The notes beneath the pieces were generated by a model. The model worked only from the letters and a program-made list of their open reading frames with translations. It was not told the DNA's origin and did not search any database. A DNA stretch of 64,000 nucleotides from Cytophagaceae bacterium (lineage in GTDB: Bacteria > Bacteroidota > Bacteroidia > Cytophagales > UBA9547). The position numbers and the translations under genes were made by a program. This document shows positions 3,372 through 40,587 of this stretch, one piece after another (the stretch's first letter is position 1; every line of letters begins with the position of its first letter). The stretch is taken from the NCBI GenBank assembly GCA_027488865.1, contig JAIYAU010000025.1:128359-192358 (forward strand), read 5' to 3'.

Positions 3372-3877
3372 ACCACAAAGATAATTTGGCACAGTGCAAC
3401 TAGCGTGCACGGTAGTAAAAAGTTTAAGGTTAGTTGAAATAAAAAGGTAACATACTCGAAGGATGCTAGGAAGATGACCGTAGGATAGGCTTAAAAGGAG
3501 GGTTTCCCCTATGGCCCCACTGGTGCGCAAGTTTACTTCGTACCCAAAACATAGAAGCAACTCTGTTCTTATACCTGCAAAAAAGTACATAAACCTCAAT
3601 CCAAAAAACATACCCCAAAATTCTTTATTCCAACAACCGCGGAAAAAGAATCCGTTGCAGTTGCTTTTAGAGCCAAGCCCAACAAATCTATTACAGTTGT
3701 TTTTAAGTACCTGAAAAAAGGAGAAAATACTCCACACCCTTTCTTTCTCTACAATCAAATCCTAAAAATCTATAGCTTGTCCAACGTCAAAACCTTCATT
3801 CCTTATAATAAACCATCCATCAACTCATCCACAACGCTTATTTCTCACACTCAAACGTTCTTTGCCTCACTTCATTT

Positions 3878-4087
3878 CTTCATTCCTCCTAACGAAATAT
3901 CCATTTCTTAATCCAAGATGTTCATTTCTCGTAACAAGATGTTCATTCCTCGTGGTGAAACTGCCATCGCGTCAGTCACTTCGTTCATTTCTTAACAAAG
4001 ATCGTTCATTTCTTTACATGAGATGCTCATTTCTTAATCCAAAACCACTATCCCGTCATTCATTTCGTTCCTTTCTTTATTCAACTC
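3878..4087 (+). repeat. degenerate 21-bp tandem/phased array, ~10 units, core GTTCATTTC
   Basis: Cores sit at 3878, 3899, 3920, 3941, (3962 weak), 3983, 4004, 4025, (4046 weak) and 4067, exactly 21 bp apart. The unit consensus by eye is GTTCATTTCTTAAnnAAGAT. Confidence 0.8.
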
Positions 4088-4230
4088 CGCTGCTGTGTCA
4101 GAATAATGGATTTTGGCTTTGAAGATTCTTGAGCGTCTTGTATTTTTACTTAATAATCTTGTCAATCACAAATACTTAACGATAGGGGTAAAATTTTTCC
4201 CACACATATTAAAACAAACAATAACAAAAT

Positions 4231-4344
4231 ATGGAAGATATTTTAAATGAAAACAATGAAAGTTTAAACTTGATGAACAAGGACTTATTTACAAAAATCT
4301 GGACTTCTCCAAGGTATCGTCTTGTATGCAAGACAATAGATTAA
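4231..4344 (+). pseudogene. 37-codon ORF, probably a 5' remnant of a larger gene
   Basis: MEDILNENNESLNLMNKDLFTKIWTSPRYRLVCKTID* looks like the cytoplasmic N-terminus of a membrane protein cut short. Its 3' end overlaps a motif repeated at other cassette junctions. Confidence 0.25.
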
Positions 4345-4481
4345 TATTTTTAAAAAAAACCTAGAAATAAAACTAATCATCTCAAAGTATAGACCGCCTT
4401 CCAGCAATGAGAGTGCATTTGTTTGTTGGTAAATTGACAGTTTAGTCCCAATTCTTAAACCTACTTACCGTTAGTAAGCTT

Positions 4482-5204: not shown

Positions 5205-5274
5205 AAAGCCAAATACACCAAACAATATATTAGCAAAGCGTGAGTTTCTTGTTTATCAAATTATCATATTAACC

Positions 5275-5333
5275 ATTCCTTGTAAGTACTATTTTAATTA
5301 TTTTGCGAGGCGTTTATTAGTATTTCATATACC
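5275..5333 (+). promoter_or_regulatory. dispersed leader/promoter-like repeat, copy A
   Basis: attccttgtaagtactattttaattattttgcgaggcgtttattagtatttcatatacc. It is alignable to copies B-F and ends 38 nt before ATG 5371. Confidence 0.6.
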
Positions 5334-5370: not shown

Positions 5371-6285
5371 ATGACAGAACATCCTCACATATTGTTTTGC
5401 GAAAACCCAATCGATTTTAACAAAATTGATGAAGATTTTGAGGACCAATTCATTTCTGCAAAAGAAAACGGTTTTGAGACACTATTATTCAACTTTGAAG
5501 ATTTAACAAGTGCCAACAGGTTTTTAAGTTCAACAAAAAGAATAAAACCCAGTGACAAATTATTGAATGTAATTTATAGAGGCTGGATGTTGACACCAGA
5601 ACAGTATTCAATTTTATACAATGACCTTTTATCAAAAAACTACAAACTCATTAACACAGTTGAGGAGTATCAAAATTGTCATTATTTGCCTGAAAGCCTA
5701 AAATTCATTAGCAGCAGAACACCAAAAACAGTATTTGAAAAATTTGACAATGAAACTAGTATTGACAAGCTTCTCGAAGAATCAAAAATATTCGGACAGA
5801 AATCTGTAATTGTGAAAGATTATGTAAAGTCCGAAAAGCATGATTGGGAAACTGCCTGTTTCGTTGCTGATGCTTCAAAAATTGATAATTTCAAAAAGAC
5901 AATTAAAAAGCTTATAGAACTACGTGGCAAATATTTGAATGAAGGGATTGTAGTTAGAGAATTTATAGAACTAAACTACTTAACTATTCATTCAAAAAGC
6001 GGAATGCCTTTAACTGAAGAATATCGTTTATTTTTTTGCAATAAAAAACTTGTAGGTATTTACGACTATTGGGAAGAAGGTGAATACAAACGTAATAAAC
6101 CTGATACAACCGAATTTGAAGAAATTGCCAAACAAATTGAAAGCAATTTTTTCAGTATGGATATTGCACGACAAAAAAACGGAGAATTAATAATTATTGA
6201 ACTTGGAGACGGACAAGTTGCAGGACTTCCTGATAAAACAAACAGAAATGAATTTTATAAACAAATACGAAATTGCTGTTGTTAG
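5371..6285 (+). CDS. ATP-grasp domain protein
   Basis: 304 aa. The C-terminal part (VIVKDYVKSEK ... GIVVREFIEL ... RLFF ... ELIIIELGDGQVAGLP) matches the ATP-grasp fold nucleotide/Mg site pattern. Confidence 0.65.
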   Translation: MTEHPHILFCENPIDFNKIDEDFEDQFISAKENGFETLLFNFEDLTSANRFLSSTKRIKPSDKLLNVIYRGWMLTPEQYSILYNDLLSKNYKLINTVEEYQNCHYLPESLKFISSRTPKTVFEKFDNETSIDKLLEESKIFGQKSVIVKDYVKSEKHDWETACFVADASKIDNFKKTIKKLIELRGKYLNEGIVVREFIELNYLTIHSKSGMPLTEEYRLFFCNKKLVGIYDYWEEGEYKRNKPDTTEFEEIAKQIESNFFSMDIARQKNGELIIIELGDGQVAGLPDKTNRNEFYKQIRNCCC

Positions 6286-7098: not shown

Positions 7099-7186
7099 TT
7101 TATAGACTTTTTATTTACTCATTTTAACCCTTCCTTACTAATCCTTTTTTAACTATTTTGCGAGTAGTTTTTTAGTAATTACAGAC
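7099..7186 (+). promoter_or_regulatory. dispersed leader/promoter-like repeat, copy B (extended form)
   Basis: ttatagactttttatttactcattttaacccttccttactaatccttttttaactattttgcgagtagttttttagtaattacagac. It ends 20 nt before ATG 7207. Confidence 0.6.
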
Positions 7187-8660: not shown

Positions 8661-8748
8661 TTATAGACTTCTTCAACTATAATTTTTCCCTTCCTCGCTA
8701 AAACTATTTTAACTATTTTGCATAAGGTTTATTAGTTTTTTTACAAAC
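8661..8748 (+). promoter_or_regulatory. dispersed leader/promoter-like repeat, copy C (extended form)
   Basis: ttatagacttcttcaactataatttttcccttcctcgctaaaactattttaactattttgcataaggtttattagtttttttacaaac. It ends 19 nt before ATG 8768. Confidence 0.6.
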
Positions 8749-8767
8749 CCCCAACACCAACCAATAA

Positions 8768-9337
8768 ATGATAGACATTTTACGCAATCATATAACGAGC
8801 AGACTTGGAAATGATCTTGACAATTTGGACAAAGTGATTTCAACTTTTAAACACATTTCAACCAAACGCAACGAGCAACTTTTACAACAAGGCGAAACTT
8901 GCAAATATGTTTACTTCGTTGCCAAAGGTTGTTTACAGGTCTACGTGTATGACCAAGATTTTAACGAAACTACCAGAGACATCGTGATTGAAGACAATTG
9001 GTGTTCAGAACTCTTGAGTTTTGGAAGTGGCAACCCAGCAACAGAAAATATCAGGGCTGTAGAGCCTTGTGAGCTATTTGCCATCGACAGACAATCATTT
9101 CAAACCATGATGGAAACGGTTCCACAGTTTGACAAAGTGTATAAACAAATCCTTGAAGCCTCTTACGCCAATTCTGTTTATCGTATCAACACATTTGTTT
9201 CATTAACAGCACTTGATAGAATAAAATGGTTGATGGAATACCGCCCTACCTTAATGAACAGACTTTCTAGCAAACTCATCGCTTCTTATTTGGGCATCAA
9301 CAAAGATGTTTTTAGTAGATTAAAAGCCAAATTGTAA
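8768..9337 (+). CDS. Crp/Fnr family transcriptional regulator
   Basis: 189 aa. A cNMP-binding beta-roll pattern (LLQQGETCKYVYFVAKGCLQVY) is followed by a C-terminal HTH (IASYLGINKDVFSRLK). Confidence 0.85.
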   Translation: MIDILRNHITSRLGNDLDNLDKVISTFKHISTKRNEQLLQQGETCKYVYFVAKGCLQVYVYDQDFNETTRDIVIEDNWCSELLSFGSGNPATENIRAVEPCELFAIDRQSFQTMMETVPQFDKVYKQILEASYANSVYRINTFVSLTALDRIKWLMEYRPTLMNRLSSKLIASYLGINKDVFSRLKAKL

Positions 9338-10787: not shown

Positions 10788-10850
10788 TGGTTTAAATCCA
10801 AAACTTAGCCCACAGTTTAAACCGTGGGCTGGATTTAAACCATGGGCTGG
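10788..10850. repeat. 13-bp inverted repeat pair plus 18-bp tandem duplication
   Basis: TGGTTTAAATCCA (10788-10800) and its exact reverse complement TGGATTTAAACCA (10830-10842). There is an inner hairpin AGCCCAC/GTGGGCT, and a tandem pair gtttaaaccgtgggctgg / atttaaaccatgggctgg (10815-10850). Confidence 0.7.
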
Positions 10851-10876
10851 TTGTGATTTCTAAAAGGATGTATTAA

Positions 10877-11446
10877 ATGGAAAATGAAATAATAAAATAC
10901 CTGTCGAGATACATTCCAGTTACCAAAGAGTTGGAAGAAGCCATCAGTAAAAGTGGATTTATCCAATGCTTTGACAAGGGCACGCTTTTGGTAGAAGAAG
11001 GCAAGTTTACACAAAAATGTTTTTTTATTCTAAAAGGATGTGTAAGAAATTACTACATAAAAGACGGTGAAGAAAAAACGACAGAATTTTATACCGAAGA
11101 GCAAGCCATAATCGCTTCGGCAAATGGCAAAAATATCCCGTCCACCTATTATCTTGAATGTATGGAGCCAACCATTGCTGCAGTGAGCGATCCCGAATTT
11201 GAAGAAGATATGTATCGAAAATTTCCTGAACTAGAATCATTAAGTCGGGTGATGGCTGAAAAGATTTTAACCAAACAAATAGAAACATTTGCCGAATTTA
11301 AAATGGCTTCACCTGAGGAAAGATACTTAAACTTTTTAACGACCAGACCGGATTTAATTCAGCGCGTGCCGCAGCATCAAATAGCCAGTTATTTGGGTAT
11401 AAAACCCGAATCACTAAGTAGGATACGCAAGCGAATAATGAAATAA
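10877..11446 (+). CDS. Crp/Fnr family transcriptional regulator (second paralogue)
   Basis: 189 aa with the same architecture as 8768..9337 (FFILKGCVRNYY ... IASYLGIKPESLSRIRKR). Confidence 0.85.
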   Translation: MENEIIKYLSRYIPVTKELEEAISKSGFIQCFDKGTLLVEEGKFTQKCFFILKGCVRNYYIKDGEEKTTEFYTEEQAIIASANGKNIPSTYYLECMEPTIAAVSDPEFEEDMYRKFPELESLSRVMAEKILTKQIETFAEFKMASPEERYLNFLTTRPDLIQRVPQHQIASYLGIKPESLSRIRKRIMK

Positions 11447-11542: not shown

Positions 11543-12202
11543 ATGTATAAAAAGATGGGCTTAAAATATTATTCACTCGCATTTACGTTTGCATTAATTG
11601 TAGCAAAAGGATTTGGACAAAATCCTGAACAATCAGCAAAGACTTCGCCTAAAGATTCTGTTCGCGATTTCAAATTTTCAATTCACACGACTTGGTTGTC
11701 GTTTGTTAATTTTGAAGAGGAGAAAAAAAATCTTCAGCATTATGAGTTGCACTTTAGGTACAAACTCACCGACAAAGATAAGGTTGGAATAAAACTAGCC
11801 ACTTGGAAACTATTTGCACCAATGGGCATTCCTTTATGGGATCCATTATTTTTGAAGGAAAGCGAATTCTATCCTGGCCGAGTACGTGAAGACGGCCTGG
11901 GCTTGACCTATCAACGAATGCTTTGGAAAGGATTATTTGCTCAAGTTGAAATAATGCCTCAATTAAAAACCTATTTTGATGCGAATAATAAAAAAATTGG
12001 GAATGGTTTTAAATTATACACCTCTTATCACCTAGGTTATCATATTAAATTGTTTAAGAATAGAATGTTCATAGAACCCCAGATTCATTGCCAGTATTGG
12101 CCAATAAATACCAACGTTCCAGAAGGCTTCAAAGCAAAAGAAAATAGATGGAATAACTATTTTCTATTTGAGCCTAACATATATGTAGGTGTTAAATTTT
12201 AA
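11543..12202 (+). CDS. putative small outer-membrane beta-barrel protein
   Basis: Signal peptide MYKKMGLKYYSLAFTFALIVAKGFGQ, alternating aromatic strands and a C-terminal ...IYVGVKF. A perfect TActTTTG box at 11513-11520 supports ATG 11543 over the TTG at 11504. Confidence 0.6.
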   Translation: MYKKMGLKYYSLAFTFALIVAKGFGQNPEQSAKTSPKDSVRDFKFSIHTTWLSFVNFEEEKKNLQHYELHFRYKLTDKDKVGIKLATWKLFAPMGIPLWDPLFLKESEFYPGRVREDGLGLTYQRMLWKGLFAQVEIMPQLKTYFDANNKKIGNGFKLYTSYHLGYHIKLFKNRMFIEPQIHCQYWPINTNVPEGFKAKENRWNNYFLFEPNIYVGVKF

Positions 12203-12224: not shown

Positions 12225-12265
12225 ACAAACCAGATTTATTAAATCGTTTACACAATCTGGTTTGT
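12225..12265 (+). terminator. hairpin after 11543..12202
   Basis: 11-bp stem ACAAACCAGAT / ATCTGGTTTGT with a 19-nt loop. The T-tract is weak. Confidence 0.4.
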
Positions 12266-12307: not shown

Positions 12308-12560
12308 TTTGTGACATTTTTTGACGATACGATTATTTTTGTCACAACTTTGTGACAAATTTTAACGATACGTTTTTTTTTGTCACAACTTTGTGACATT
12401 TTTTGACGACACGTTTTTTTTTGTCACAACTTTGTGGCATTTTTTGACGATACGATTATTTTTGTCACAACTTTGTGGCATTTTTTAACAATACGTTTTT
12501 TTTTGCCACAACTTTGTGGCATTTTTTGACGATACGATTTTTTTTGCCACAACCTTGTGA
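12308..12560 (+). repeat. 41-bp tandem repeat, 6 full units plus a partial 7th, each carrying an 8-bp inverted repeat
   Basis: Units start at 12308, 12349, 12390, 12431, 12472 and 12513. The unit is TTTGTGACA-N23-TGTCACAAC. Units 5-6 carry the paired change TTTGTGGCA ... TGCCACAAC. Confidence 0.9.
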
Positions 12561-12675
12561 AAAATATTCTTAGACCTAAATGCATGACTTTCTCAACTAT
12601 ATTGCAAATAATCTTAACGCTCCAAAGAACTAGAAAAACTCACTTTGCTCAAGCATTTTAAGGATAAAGGTATTT

Positions 12676-12736
12676 TTTTCTTACTAAAAGTATTTTTATT
12701 ATTTTGCAATGGAGTTTGTAAGTTTTTCATAGGCTG
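12676..12736 (+). promoter_or_regulatory. dispersed leader/promoter-like repeat, copy D
   Basis: ttttcttactaaaagtatttttattattttgcaatggagtttgtaagtttttcataggctg. It is almost identical to copy E and ends 30 nt before ATG 12767. Confidence 0.6.
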
Positions 12737-12766: not shown

Positions 12767-13225
12767 ATGACAGAATATTATTTTGAAACAAGAGAGTTCG
12801 GGCTTTCTGATAAAGGAATTCATTTATTAAGAAGTGGTTATAACTATGAGACCCACGACTATTCCGACATTGACACGTTGACAGTTGAAAAAGGAAAGGA
12901 GTTAAATAATTGGATTATAATTTTTGTAATAGGACTCTGTTTGGTTACATTTTCAATTTGGTATAGTTTCCGATTATTTAATATAATTTACAATCGTGAA
13001 GTGAATGTTATTTATATCGAGAATTTATTTGTTCCACTAATTCCATTTATGGTTGGACTTTATTGCGTTTATACCTCCACTAGAAATGGCACAGTTTTGA
13101 GACTCAAGACAACAAAGGATAAAAAGGATAAATTTTCATTAAGAGAAATTGAAAAAGAAAATAAACTTGAGGGCTTCAAACAATTATTAAAGGACAAATT
13201 ACATACAAAAGTAAAAATTTATTAA
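12767..13225 (+). CDS. hypothetical 2-TM membrane protein
   Basis: 152 aa with two hydrophobic helices (WIIIFVIGLCLVTFSIWY and FVPLIPFMVGLYCVY) and a Lys-rich tail. Confidence 0.55.
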   Translation: MTEYYFETREFGLSDKGIHLLRSGYNYETHDYSDIDTLTVEKGKELNNWIIIFVIGLCLVTFSIWYSFRLFNIIYNREVNVIYIENLFVPLIPFMVGLYCVYTSTRNGTVLRLKTTKDKKDKFSLREIEKENKLEGFKQLLKDKLHTKVKIY

Positions 13226-13286
13226 TAACGGATCTACCGTTTAATAAGAGCGATTTTTTTAGGGAAAGAGCATTTTAGACAATTAC

Positions 13287-13346
13287 TTCCTTGCTAAAAG
13301 TATTTTTATTATTTTGCAATGGAGTTTGTGAGTTTTTCATAAGCTA
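13287..13346 (+). promoter_or_regulatory. dispersed leader/promoter-like repeat, copy E
   Basis: cttccttgctaaaagtatttttattattttgcaatggagtttgtgagtttttcataagct. It ends 29 nt before ATG 13376. Confidence 0.6.
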
Positions 13347-15881: not shown

Positions 15882-15915
15882 TTAGACACAAAATTTGACT
15901 AAACAGCTACAGGAA

Positions 15916-18807
15916 ATGAAGACCATCGTTTTAGTGTTCTTGACATTGATAATCTATTATTCTGATGCTCAAATTAGTACAGGAATAAATAATGAAAATC
16001 CTAATTCCAAAGCAGCATTGGACATCAAAGGTAGTTTTACCACGCCACAAGGCCTACTTATTCCTAGATATTCAACCGATCAAAGTCTAATTTTTAACTT
16101 ATCAGGCAATAACGCCGTGGGCCTTACCTATTATGATACCACTGCAGGCATTTTTAGATATTACCAAGGAAATGGCATATGGTCTACTTATGGAGGTATT
16201 GGATCTGGGTCAAACAACTGGTCGCTTACTGGAAATTCGTTTACTGCAGCGGATACAGCGGGGTCTGGAATTAAGTTTTTAGGTACTACAAATCTTACTC
16301 CATTGATTTTCATGACCAATGGTATACAACGAATGAGGATTGGACGAAATGGAAACTTGGGTATAGGTATGAATCCAAATTCTGGGATACCTGTCTCAAT
16401 AAAATCTACTGGTATTGGACAAATACTACAAATAGAGTCAAGTGCGGCGCAAGAACCACTTTTTGAATTTAGAGAAACTTCCAATAATTATGCGCGGTTG
16501 GTACTTAACAACGGTGGTACCAACGCAATTCAGCTTTCGGCAGGGCCCGATTTTTCCACCTATTTTAAAGGAACGTATGTTGGTATAAACAATTCATCTC
16601 CTACAGCTCGGTTTAATGTTACAGGATGGAGTAGATTCGATACCTTGGCTGGATCGGGTATTGCCTCAGTAATGGTAAATGCCAATGGAGATTTATATCG
16701 AGGTTCATCGGGTTTAGCCTGGAGTATAATTGGCAATTCGGGGACCAACAATACCAATTTTTTGGGCACAACAGATAACGTCGATTTGAGGTTTCGTACA
16801 AATAACTTGACTCGCATGGTGATAGATTCAGCAACTGGCAATATAGGTATTGGTACATCCACTCCAAACGGTGCACTTGATATCATGAGAGAAGGTATTC
16901 TTCCTGCTTTTTTGATAGCTACAAGCCATAGCGGTACTAATAATGCTAATGGCACCTCTATCATCATGAGAAGATCTGCTGGAACTACTGCCTCTGGGGC
17001 AGCCTTAGTTGGTACAGATGATCTTATAGGGCAAATAGCAGCTCAAGGATATACGAGTGGAAATGTCTTTGCAAATGCAGCAGGCATTCTTCTAGAAGTA
17101 GATTCCATTTCGTCGGTTACTAGCATGCCTGGCAGGATACGATTTACCACCACCCCAGTTGGTACAATTACGCCTATAGAAAGAATGAGAATTTCTAACA
17201 ATGGAAGGGTTGGTATTGGTACTACAGCCCCACTAGCAACTTTACATATTCAGTCACCAAGTGTGATTACCTCCAACACCCAATTTGGTAATTTACACGT
17301 TTCGTCTTCAAACTCCCAAACTTCTAATCTCGGCGGGTCTATTACGCTGGGAGGCTATAACGACATCGCAGCTACCAGTTTAAGCGTTTTTGGATCTATT
17401 GAAGGCCGTAAAACTACCGCCACTTCTGGTCAAAGCTCAGGTTATTTGATATTCAAAACCAATACATTAGGTATATTGTCAGAACAAATGCGTATTGCAA
17501 ATAATGGTAATATAGGGATTGGTACTGCTGTTACTGCGACCAAAAAGGTAAGTATCGATATTCCTTCAACAAATACCACAGAAGCGGACGCATTATCCAT
17601 TAATACAGCTTATAGTGGCATTGGCTCTAAAAGGGGTCTTTACATCAATCTTACTTCTGATGGAAGTGGTAACCATTATGGAATATATAATGATGTGGAT
17701 GGTTTGGCGGGAGATATAAGTCCTTTGTATGGAACTTACAATTCATTTACTCCTAATGGAACCGGAACTGCATATGGAAGTTACACAACTATTTCGAACG
17801 TTGGTACTGGTTTAAGATATGGTGCATATTATGAACTTACTAGTGGGGCTGCTAATGTTAGTCCTATCTACAGTACATATTCAAGGCTTAATGTAACTGG
17901 TACAAACACACATTATGCCTATTATGGTGAATTTCTTGGAGCTGGCACGGGCCTAAAGTATGGAATTTATATGGATGGGGACTCGATGAATTACTTTAAT
18001 GGTCGTGTAGGTATCGGAACAACCGCCCCTGCGGGAAAGCTTCATGTAGAAGAACGAGATGGAACTATCTTTACCTCTAATAATTTCGGTGATGGTGGCC
18101 CAGGTCTAGTAATTAATAATACTTCACCTACCGACGATGAAACCACGTTTTTGGAATTTAGGGCCAATAACACTCGAATAGGATCTATCCACATGAGATA
18201 TGTTAGTGGCGTTAATACTTCTGCTATGAATGTTGGTACCTATAATAATAACGCTCTGGTAATGGTAACAAATTCTTTTGAAAGAATGAGAATAACCCAA
18301 GCCGGTCTTGTAGGGATTGGAATGACCCCAGTATATCAACTTCAATTGTCGACCAACAGTGCAGCCAAACCAACTTCTGGTACATGGACCGTAGCCTCTG
18401 ATGCAAGGTTAAAAAAGGACATTGCTCCATTCAAGTCTGGTCTTACCGATGTTCTGTCAATTAATCCTGTTTGGTTTACTTACACTGGTAAAGCTGGTAT
18501 GCCAAAAGAAACAGGAGTTGGTGTAATTGCCCAAGAACTGCAAAAAGTAGCTCCTTATATGGTTGGCACTTGGAAACACAAAGAAGACAATTTGGAAACA
18601 GAATATTTAGCAGTCGACAATGGGGCAATGACTTACATGCTTGTGAATGCTACCAAAGAGTTACATGAAAAGCTAGAAATGGTAACCACCCAAAACTTGC
18701 TTCTGAAAAATGAAGTCGAAAATTTAAAGCGATTAAATCTACAATTTGCCTCTGAAATAGAAAAAATAAAGTCAGTTCTTGGATTAGGAATCGAGGCAAA
18801 AAAATAA
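15916..18807 (+). CDS. secreted tail-fibre-like repeat protein with C-terminal peptidase S74 (intramolecular chaperone) domain
   Basis: Signal peptide MKTIVLVFLTLIIYYSDAQ. A motif xRMRIxxxGNVGIGTxxP recurs at least 6 times. The C-terminal SDARLKKDIAPF...GVIAQELQKVAPYMV matches the S74 Ser-Lys autoprocessing motif SDxRxK, followed by a final coiled coil. Confidence 0.85.
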   Translation: MKTIVLVFLTLIIYYSDAQISTGINNENPNSKAALDIKGSFTTPQGLLIPRYSTDQSLIFNLSGNNAVGLTYYDTTAGIFRYYQGNGIWSTYGGIGSGSNNWSLTGNSFTAADTAGSGIKFLGTTNLTPLIFMTNGIQRMRIGRNGNLGIGMNPNSGIPVSIKSTGIGQILQIESSAAQEPLFEFRETSNNYARLVLNNGGTNAIQLSAGPDFSTYFKGTYVGINNSSPTARFNVTGWSRFDTLAGSGIASVMVNANGDLYRGSSGLAWSIIGNSGTNNTNFLGTTDNVDLRFRTNNLTRMVIDSATGNIGIGTSTPNGALDIMREGILPAFLIATSHSGTNNANGTSIIMRRSAGTTASGAALVGTDDLIGQIAAQGYTSGNVFANAAGILLEVDSISSVTSMPGRIRFTTTPVGTITPIERMRISNNGRVGIGTTAPLATLHIQSPSVITSNTQFGNLHVSSSNSQTSNLGGSITLGGYNDIAATSLSVFGSIEGRKTTATSGQSSGYLIFKTNTLGILSEQMRIANNGNIGIGTAVTATKKVSIDIPSTNTTEADALSINTAYSGIGSKRGLYINLTSDGSGNHYGIYNDVDGLAGDISPLYGTYNSFTPNGTGTAYGSYTTISNVGTGLRYGAYYELTSGAANVSPIYSTYSRLNVTGTNTHYAYYGEFLGAGTGLKYGIYMDGDSMNYFNGRVGIGTTAPAGKLHVEERDGTIFTSNNFGDGGPGLVINNTSPTDDETTFLEFRANNTRIGSIHMRYVSGVNTSAMNVGTYNNNALVMVTNSFERMRITQAGLVGIGMTPVYQLQLSTNSAAKPTSGTWTVASDARLKKDIAPFKSGLTDVLSINPVWFTYTGKAGMPKETGVGVIAQELQKVAPYMVGTWKHKEDNLETEYLAVDNGAMTYMLVNATKELHEKLEMVTTQNLLLKNEVENLKRLNLQFASEIEKIKSVLGLGIEAKK

Positions 18808-40300: not shown

Positions 40301-40392
40301 TTTTTTAAAGTAAGCTATCTATAAAGTATGTTTACAACATAAGTCATCAAAATGGAGCAATAAAATTATATTTACTTTGATTTTCATACTTC

Positions 40393-40450
40393 TTCCTTGT
40401 AAATAGATTTTTTAACTATTTTGCGGGGAGTTAGTAAGTTTTTTACAGAC
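40393..40450 (+). promoter_or_regulatory. dispersed leader/promoter-like repeat, copy F
   Basis: ttccttgtaaatagattttttaactattttgcggggagttagtaagttttttacagac, 138 nt before ATG 40588. Confidence 0.55.
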
Positions 40451-40587
40451 CGACCCTGATTAAGAGTCATAAAATTTAGAAGCCCTCAATATCAAAGAAT
40501 AATAAACCAAACAAAAAAATAGCTTTAAAATTAAAATAAATTGTTGGTTGGATTTTGAAGTAATAATACTCTCAAATATAGTTAATT

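Follow-up and report, generated by a model that had tools for sequence, protein, structure and literature searches.

The 64,000-nt stretch of a Cytophagaceae bacterium analysed here (contig JAIYAU010000025.1 of assembly GCA_027488865.1, positions 128,359 to 192,358 of the forward strand, hereafter the window) carries between two of its genes, at nt 12308–12560, a run of 41-bp tandem repeats, each of which is itself an inverted repeat. What kind of element is this, and what acts on it? An earlier note on this DNA had proposed three roles, namely a structured multi-hairpin RNA, an array of operators for a dimeric regulator, and iterons or a recombination hotspot. The comparative evidence favours the second of these, although the regulators which that note had in mind, two nearby Crp/Fnr paralogues, are not supported. 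We give somewhat better than even credence to the array being an expanded orphan member of a family of Bacteroidota operator arrays, which would be bound as double-stranded DNA by regulators with an XRE-type helix-turn-helix (HTH) and a coiled coil, encoded elsewhere, and which would have grown by slippage.

Tandem Repeats Finder describes the array as 6.2 copies of a 41-bp period with 89% matches and 0% indels (score 387), and also calls a 123-bp super-period (2.1 copies). Each unit consists of TTTGTGRCA, 23 nt of T-rich sequence around (G/A)AC(G/A)A(T/C)ACG, and TGYCACAAC, and a degenerate seventh half-site, CTTGTGAAA, begins at nt 12554. The exact tandem units from nt 12308 with their trailing half-site, the 8-bp inverted arms in three states and the palindromes formed where units abut had all been reported before, and are confirmed here, the arms unit by unit. 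The parts of the array are:

nt 12308–12560, no strand assigned: whole array, six complete 41-bp units and a degenerate seventh half-site (from Tandem Repeats Finder, the sequence and shuffles)
nt 12308–12430, no strand assigned: units 1–3, in which all six half-sites are A-type (TGTGACA / TGTCACA; from the sequence)
nt 12431–12553, no strand assigned: units 4–6, G-type (TGTGGCA / TGCCACA) except for the right arm of unit 4, which is A-type (from the sequence)
nt 12340–12357, 12381–12398, 12422–12439, 12463–12480 and 12504–12521 (span 12340–12521), no strand assigned: five complete 18-bp palindromes, 41 bp apart
nt 12545–12562, no strand assigned: degenerate sixth palindrome, TGCCACA-ACCT-TGTGAAA, with one mismatch, at the decayed right edge of the array

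Twelve perfect TGTGNCA/TGNCACA half-sites are present, in strict + − alternation and with start-to-start distances of 30 and 11 bp. Nine of the 41 unit positions vary (7, 10, 11, 16, 19, 21, 25, 28 and 35), and only two of these, 7 and 35, lie in the arms, where they are dyad partners: units 1–3 have A...T, unit 4 has G...T on the + strand because of its A-type right arm, and units 5–6 have G...C. For two random arm substitutions a complementary outcome at dyad partners would arise in only about 2% of cases (a rough estimate). The unit junctions, TGYCACA-ACTT-TGTGRCA, form five perfect palindromes and one with a single mismatch, and these 18-bp sequences are candidate dimer operators. Chance can be excluded as the source of the array, since the pattern counts lie far above those in shuffled sequence: TGTGNCA-N20-25-TGNCACA occurs six times in the window, every time within the array (0.01 expected); the 18-bp junction palindrome also occurs six times, in the array only (0.10 expected); and TTGTGRCA occurs 18 times against 5.4 expected, with 12 of the 18 inside the array.

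Arrays of the same design occur in other Bacteroidota. A scan of one genome per species with the pattern TTGTGNCA-N18-28-TGNCACAACTTTGTGNCA gave 10 loci, mostly in Flavobacterium, Chitinophagales, Cyclobacteriaceae and Ferruginibacter; with a relaxed pattern, 60 metagenome loci and one viral contig were recovered, and the strict pattern had no match among viral contigs. Flavobacterium tegetincola DSM 22377 (L002) and Flavobacterium sp. 9AF are carriers of such arrays that are in culture. Ten loci of JACCDI01, L034 and the GC-rich L017 were set aside as other repeat families (loci are cited by L numbers and proteins by P numbers). About 50 loci from the pattern scans are AT-rich Bacteroidota arrays that share the spacings, in one of two layouts: (a) + − + − + −, with start-to-start distances of 29–30 / 11 / 29–30 / 11 / 29 bp, equivalent to 2–3 units of 40–41 bp, or (b) + + − − + −, with distances of 14 / 15 / 15 / 11 / 30 bp. 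The window array follows layout (a), with a spacing of 30 / 11 throughout its six units. The half-site consensus, T-TGTGNCA-A, is identical in 78 sites near XRE genes (see below) and in 199 orphan sites, and the 12 half-sites of the window fit it, with a T at −1 in 100% of them. The free base N is uniform within the array in 53 of 79 arrays and differs between arrays; spacers are A/T-rich across the family, and the spacer (loop) sequence is not conserved. Family arrays lie between genes without exception (of about 85 clusters, 0 fall within open reading frames, ORFs) and may have either orientation relative to their neighbours. By its half-site, its spacing and its intergenic location, between nt 12202 and 12767, the window array belongs to this phased TGTGNCA family.

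Some of the loci recovered in the scans have features of their own. At L031 (nt 16–258), L036 (nt 10812–11038), L037 (nt 5609–5851) and L059 (nt 280–522), two modules of about 150 bp lie side by side with similar loops and flanks, and the six half-sites are all TGTGGCA in one module and all TGTGTCA in the other. This coordinated switch of the free base is possibly a change of binding specificity. The JACCDI01 repeat (L021, L023, L047, L051, L053, L060, L061, L065, L074, L075) is about 250 bp long and dispersed, with TGTCACA-N3/4-TGTGACA palindromes and conserved flanks that are not AT-rich; one metagenome supplied many of the copies, which often lie at contig ends, and the repeat is separate from the Bacteroidota array family. 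Locus L034 (nt 800–1599) has 18 tandem 44-bp units with TGTCACA-AGTG-TGTGACA (often decayed to TATGACA) and a GC-containing spacer, and is a far longer array of related-looking yet distinct design. That L041 and L048, on one contig, flank a single giant gene was considered and rejected, as the two share only paralogous similarity.

A partner for the arrays is suggested by the genes beside them. When all ORFs within 2.5 kb of the arrays were clustered, the only recurrent neighbour family with a consistent geometry was an XRE-type protein of 160–182 aa, found at 10 loci, and in nine of the ten its start codon lies 4–91 bp from the array. The next-best clusters (type IX secretion system (T9SS) cargo, histidine kinase and Pol I) have no consistent geometry and are apparently ordinary neighbours. 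In the reverse direction, six further homologues were obtained from a profile search and their loci fetched by exact protein look-up, and five of the six have an array of the same architecture immediately upstream:

P0125 (L077): TGTGNCA sites upstream, layout (b)
P0127 (L086): TGTGNCA sites upstream, layout (b)
P0134 (L093-94): three 40–41-bp units of layout (a), the last one stopping 2 bp short of the ATG
P0137 (L083): + − + − upstream, with a variant core
P0129 (L079), 33% identical: spacing 15 / 15 / 15 / 11 / 29, with all six sites TGTTGCA / TGCAACA

In the last of these a diverged protein goes with a changed core while the lattice is kept, which is the behaviour expected of a cognate operator. 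In the metagenome-assembled genome (MAG) JAAFIK01, an XRE gene and its array (L077) occur together with an orphan array (L007). Arrays and XRE genes are associated in both directions of search, and the position of the array, nearly always directly before the XRE start codon, suggests autoregulation. The recognition helix shows a suggestive split, Ser or Ala against G-type or A-type arrays, over 4 versus 6 loci that are few and not independent.

The XRE proteins themselves match nothing beyond the generic HTH_3 in Pfam, NCBIfam and PHROGs. An AlphaFold model with a mean predicted local distance difference test (pLDDT) score of 86.9 places the HTH at residues 3–55 and a helix at residues 60–119, followed by two fold-back helices, and searches with Foldseek and against PDB sequences returned HTH-only matches: the 434 repressor (36% identity over 47 residues), C.BclI, C.AhdI and HipB. 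The family comprises 1,679 clusters at 50% identity (E<=1e-10), and the top matches are nearly all full-length, at 160–200 aa. No match was found in the plasmid collection, and the phage collection gave one partial HTH match in one record; taken together with the occurrence of the pattern in 0–1 viral contigs, this provides no evidence for a phage or plasmid origin.

The gene that follows the XRE gene is usually one for a conserved all-helical protein of 119–138 aa (L004, L006, L040, L077, L086, L093), for which Pfam, PHROG and NCBIfam gave no match; in L086 a 122-aa protein comes next after it. The XRE module often has genes of restriction or defence around it (RloB, ResIII, Mrr, type I restriction-modification). 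In four proteins (P0142, of 4162 aa, P0144, P0164 and P0192) the XRE profile matched in 7–17 separate stretches each, which suggests tandem HTH repeats; these may be real multi-HTH proteins or artefacts of gene calling.

If the window array is an orphan operator array, its building block would be the 7-bp half-site T-TGTGNCA-A, set in alternating orientation at 30 and 11 bp to give a unit of 41 bp. As this period is about four helical turns, all sites would lie roughly on one face of the duplex. Adjacent units would form the 18-bp palindromes TGNCACA-N4-TGTGNCA, the size of a classical HTH dimer operator, and the binder would be an XRE-family regulator of about 165–200 aa with an N-terminal, 434-repressor-like HTH and a helical stalk of about 60 residues that folds back. 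The array would act in trans, as a multi-dimer platform of five full operators and two edge half-sites, and its most plausible effects would be repression or insulation of the promoter beside it, or a block to read-through arriving from the gene upstream. We infer, from sequence comparison, that XRE proteins would bind these sites, that the source genome would encode a protein of this family, and that the window array would have a regulatory consequence. Expansion from the usual 2–3 units to six may have occurred by slipped-strand events or unequal recombination, and the paired A>G and T>C change in the arms would be one dyad-symmetric change, multiplied by unit duplication. The arm substitutions had earlier been read as paired and compensatory-looking; the pairing is real, but a single event amplified by duplication may account for it, and dyad-symmetric protein sites predict it equally well. 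The G/T state of unit 4 is regarded as one intermediate, and not as evidence for a plus-strand RNA.

Several observations weigh against an operator array of this kind. The proposed binding follows from guilt by association. No member of the XRE family is present in the 64-kb window (tblastn, and a hidden Markov model search of all ORFs), which makes the window array an orphan, as are most arrays found by pattern; orphans outnumber XRE-proximal arrays, and five independent ones lie between convergent genes, where a repressor site has no obvious job. The sixth homologue of the reverse test, P0133 (L092), has no clear array upstream. In arrays of mixed N, arms 30 bp apart agree in 18 of 31 cases and the 11-bp palindrome halves in 16 of 49, unlike the prediction for a dimer that reads N on the 18-bp palindrome; this pattern would favour a hairpin, or at the least is left unexplained by an operator array. 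The same inverted repeats would also form hairpins, which would leave a single-strand role compatible with the sequence.

The features that adjoin the array in the window are:

nt 11555–12202, + strand: upstream gene, a 215-aa secreted protein resembling outer-membrane proteins (OMP-like), without a Pfam family
nt 12225–12265, + strand: hairpin with a 12-bp perfect stem, a 17-nt loop and no T tail, separate from the repeat (from the sequence)
nt 12672–12735, + strand: promoter-like 'leader' repeat copy (repeat family D2)
nt 12767–13225, + strand: downstream gene, a 152-aa predicted membrane protein

From the stop codon of the 215-aa gene it is 106 bp to the start of the array, which ends 207 bp before the membrane-protein gene. 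Between the array and the latter gene lies the leader copy, about 110 bp from the one and 32 bp from the other. Should the array be regulatory, the membrane-protein gene would be its likeliest target in cis. The hairpin that the earlier note placed after the upstream gene is present in the sequence; the description of that gene as a beta-barrel has no Pfam support and remains a guess. The two Crp/Fnr paralogues (nt 8768–9337 and 10877–11446) are confirmed by their domains (cNMP_binding, HTH_Crp_2) and lie 0.9–3.5 kb upstream of the array. The 215-aa gene comes after a Crp/Fnr-type gene, and the pair is kept in relatives. Genes in the neighbourhood of the array encode Crp/Fnr, OMP-like, membrane, VOC and DUF1905 proteins, and the window is core chromosome, with FtsK, LolA, PyrF, PheT, 2-oxoacid dehydrogenase E2 and a GH3 enzyme. 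Among the window ORFs scanned with Pfam, a subset of all ORFs, none had an integrase, rep, par or cas domain.

Other repeats are present in the window. The leader is a sequence of 54–64 nt (CTTCCTTGCTAAAA..TATTTT.A.TATTTTGC....GTT.GT.AGTTTTT) that precedes at least six + strand genes, one of them of Crp/Fnr type, with copies at nt 5268–5321, 7123–7176, 8683–8749, 12672–12735, 13282–13345 and 40386–40451; those at 12672 and 13282 share 91% identity. The sequence resembles a promoter and 5' leader common to the genes of a small regulon. A GTTCATTTCT-like motif, in about nine copies spaced at about 21 bp, occupies nt 3814–4037 (several period-21 arrays are called by Tandem Repeats Finder) in an unusually long gene-free stretch of about 870 bp (nt 3612–4481). 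Large proteins with repeated 'IGIGT..P...L.V' segments are encoded at nt 15895–18807 of the window and at nt 4384–5985 of L006. The window protein has a Peptidase_S74 (tail-fibre chaperone) domain and lies 3.3 kb downstream of the array, and that of L006 is close to the XRE gene and array of its locus, which may be a coincidence.

The surroundings of the arrays bear on the question of whether they have a host function at all. In Enterobacteria and Pseudomonas, repetitive extragenic palindromic (REP) sequences and bacterial interspersed mosaic elements (BIMEs) are short palindromic motifs in alternating orientation with two linker classes, which lie between genes, including convergent 3' ends. 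Their copy number varies, they can bind host proteins, they form stem-loops of 20–40 nt, and they go with a REP-associated tyrosine transposase (RAYT)-type gene. The present arrays resemble them in their alternating palindromic motifs, two linker classes, intergenic dispersal and variable copy number; they differ in that the motif is a half-site of 7–9 bp, that no RAYT-type gene was seen, and that a gene for an HTH regulator is strongly associated with them. A selfish or neutral dispersed repeat, like REP/BIME or a miniature inverted-repeat transposable element (MITE), would have no host function, and the XRE gene would share or have captured its sequence; the units would form hairpins or cruciforms in single-stranded DNA and be spread by some unspecified enzyme or by slippage. 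The strictly intergenic location would suit this, as would the gene contexts, which, where classifiable, are tandem, divergent and convergent in roughly random proportions (25, 7 and 7). So would the number of copies, several per contig or metagenome (L018, L055 and L057; L041 and L048 on one contig), and the break of an independent assembly of the same organism at the array (Logan SRR30952584, L011), where the flank is identical and the contig ends inside unit 1. Orthologues of the upstream gene of the window (74–79% identity; one source names a Pedobacter MAG) retain the Crp partner, and the array was not found at their loci, where the DNA downstream is unrelated. This also fits a mobile repeat, and makes the array a lineage-specific acquisition rather than a conserved part of an operon; insertion boundaries could not be defined from the synteny with these orthologues.

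The comparison of orthologous orphan arrays points the other way. Between L055/L057 and L018 the half-sites are 28/28 identical, while the loops agree at 39–41 of 48 positions and the flanks at about 80%, so that the orphan half-sites are under constraint, and the sequences show purifying selection on them. The arrays compared flank an RCC1/T9SS gene, and one lies between convergent genes. Such conservation amid diverging loops and flanks argues for function. Moreover, no transposase or RAYT-like gene recurs among the ORFs next to arrays, no target-site duplications or terminal modules were recognised, and every unit of L035 and L046, like several XRE-proximal arrays, breaks the complementarity of N. 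A selfish or neutral repeat is, on balance, unlikely.

Copy number and flanked DNA are fluid between relatives. Orthologous loci have three units (L018) versus two (L055/L057), and four (L035) versus three (L046). In L018, two near-identical arrays (nt 3735–3852 and 5560–5677) bracket a 1.8-kb T9SS gene with RCC1 repeats; L019 lacks this gene, and there one array (nt 2138–2255) stands between the same outer flanks. The difference, which a selfish repeat would also accommodate, may be due either to recombination between the arrays or to a cassette-like indel. The suggestion of a recombination hotspot is thus loosely apt, as copy number varies and a gene between two arrays may be present or absent; the suggestion of iterons finds no rep or par genes nearby.

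The arms that would serve as protein sites could also pair in RNA. Were the array transcribed, its six stem-loops might act as a small RNA, an untranslated-region element or a protein sponge. The sequence folds strongly on both strands (z = −11.7 on the + strand, −9.4 on the − strand), but comparable scores come from any inverted-repeat array. The G...T pair of unit 4 would be a G-U wobble on the + strand only, and on that strand a match to the promoter consensus of Bacteroidetes, TTTG-N22-TAnnTTTG, is present in units 1 and 4. This consensus is not enriched in the window (12 matches, 7.7 expected), and the −33 and −7 boxes of units 1 and 4 fall inside the two arms, which, we note, is where a repressor would occlude a promoter. 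The window has no Rfam hit at the gathering score and only sub-threshold noise at E<=10. Across the family the loops are unconserved, and arrays occur in both orientations and between convergent genes as well; a T.T mismatch (T-type against A-type arm) is present in every unit of L035 and L046, and the arms are discordant in the XRE-proximal arrays L005, L006, L077 and L086. The six sites of L079 have changed together with the DNA spacing kept, a pattern that tracks the protein and not the fold. With no Rfam family, free loops, mismatched arms and either orientation, the multi-hairpin RNA is left unsupported, and we think it very unlikely.

The same junction hairpins could serve the upstream + strand gene as weak intrinsic terminators in tandem or as a transcriptional insulator. 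Each of the five complete palindromes has a 7-bp stem and a 4-nt loop and is followed on the + strand by a terminator-like T6, with hairpin energies of −7.7 to −10.4 kcal/mol. A loose scan flagged four + strand junctions, the region has five terminator-like sites against 0.9 expected, and the upstream gene's own hairpin is without a T tail. The stems, however, are short and GC-poor, with 3–4 GC pairs, and the T tail is no trait of the family, in which there are A runs instead, or T-rich sequence on the strand that faces no gene (L002, L018b). There is only a slight probability that termination is what the array is for; it could be a local side effect, compatible with an operator array.

Among DNA-binding proteins other than the XRE family, the Crp/Fnr paralogues were candidates, as their genes lie 0.9–3.5 kb upstream and the half-sites contain TGTGA / TCACA. 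The array nevertheless has TCACA-N4-TGTGA at the junctions and TGTGA-N27-TCACA within units, and never the TGTGA-N6-TCACA of the 22-bp CRP/FNR sites, so that the pentamers are shared while spacing and relative orientation differ. The Crp-plus-barrel gene pair is kept in L013 and L014, neither of which has an array, and Crp genes do not recur beside arrays elsewhere, where the XRE protein travels instead. Failing on both geometry and co-occurrence, Crp/Fnr regulation of the array is hardly credible.

A centromere-like or iteron array can be compared with sopC of the F plasmid, in which a 43-bp sequence is directly repeated 12 times and SopB binds the 16-bp inverted repeat within each copy (PMC3177203). 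The layouts are similar, with a near-identical period (41 versus 43 bp) and an inverted-repeat protein site in each repeat; both would make a multi-copy binding platform, and in both the copy number is probably not critical. The window array is, in contrast, chromosomal and intergenic and without ParA/ParB, its putative binder is an XRE HTH protein and not ParB, and copies in its family usually number 2–3. Neither the neighbourhood nor the scanned window ORFs include parA, parB or rep, the window has genes of a core chromosome (FtsK, PheT, PyrF, LolA), and the XRE family has no full-length plasmid or phage match, only the partial HTH match in one phage record. A partition or replication site is extremely improbable.

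Three further candidates were rejected. For a CRISPR (clustered regularly interspaced short palindromic repeats) array the period is only 41 bp, the 22–23-nt 'spacers' are near-identical, and no cas domain was found among the Pfam-scanned window ORFs (not every ORF). The published LexA boxes of Bacteroidetes, GGA-N5-TCC and CTAA-N5-TTAG, do not match the array (PMC8565304). Compared by eye with the DnaA box TTWTNCACA, TTTGNCACA has one mismatch, at a normally conserved T, and dispersed short arrays are unlike oriC.

The closest known parallels to the operator-array reading are found among the operators of 434 and the lambdoid phages, of XRE-family regulators and of restriction-modification controller (C) proteins. 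The partner protein has an HTH of the 434/C-protein type, dyad sites of about 18 bp lie immediately upstream of the regulator's own gene, and there are several sites per control region, implying cooperative binding. The differences are the phased 40–41-bp lattice with extra half-sites 29–30 or 14–15 bp away, a helical stalk of about 110 aa, as modelled, in place of a globular dimerisation or peptidase domain, and the many orphan arrays far from a regulator gene, some of them between convergent genes. A repressor with multiple dyad operators and autoregulation is a well-known kind of system. Literature searches with the array motif strings returned primers and unrelated matches only, and nothing relevant was found on Flavobacterium intergenic hairpin repeats or on XRE/coiled-coil operators in Bacteroidetes. 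In the literature searched, the fixed 40–41-bp lattice, the long helical stalk, the many constrained orphans and the module-wide switches of the free base (L031, L036, L037, L059) appear to be undescribed.

A more speculative view, to which we attach a low probability, is that the arrays and the XRE/coiled-coil proteins form a Bacteroidota system of orthogonal protein-DNA 'addresses', in which the choice of paralogue would depend on the free base of TGTGNCA. The six-site switches between G and T at the same four loci would then be explained, as would the block of A followed by a block of G in the window array. The helical stalk, about 9 nm long in the model, might let bound proteins bridge arrays, and orphan arrays and gene-flanking pairs (L018, L055, L057) would then be architectural or insulator elements and not classical operators.

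The consequence for the window is modest, a single orphan array with a possible influence on the gene of one small membrane protein. For the family it would be wider. If the operator-array reading is true, an XRE subfamily of at least 1,679 clusters at 50% identity, with no Pfam domain beyond the HTH, would be linked to a recognisable DNA signature. It would also explain intergenic tandem repeats that break short-read assemblies (as at L011) and that are easily confused with RNA genes, CRISPR-like arrays or Crp sites. The signature could be found by pattern search in any Bacteroidota genome, and would provide a testable map of regulons and binding sites in a phylum whose known transcription-factor motifs are few.

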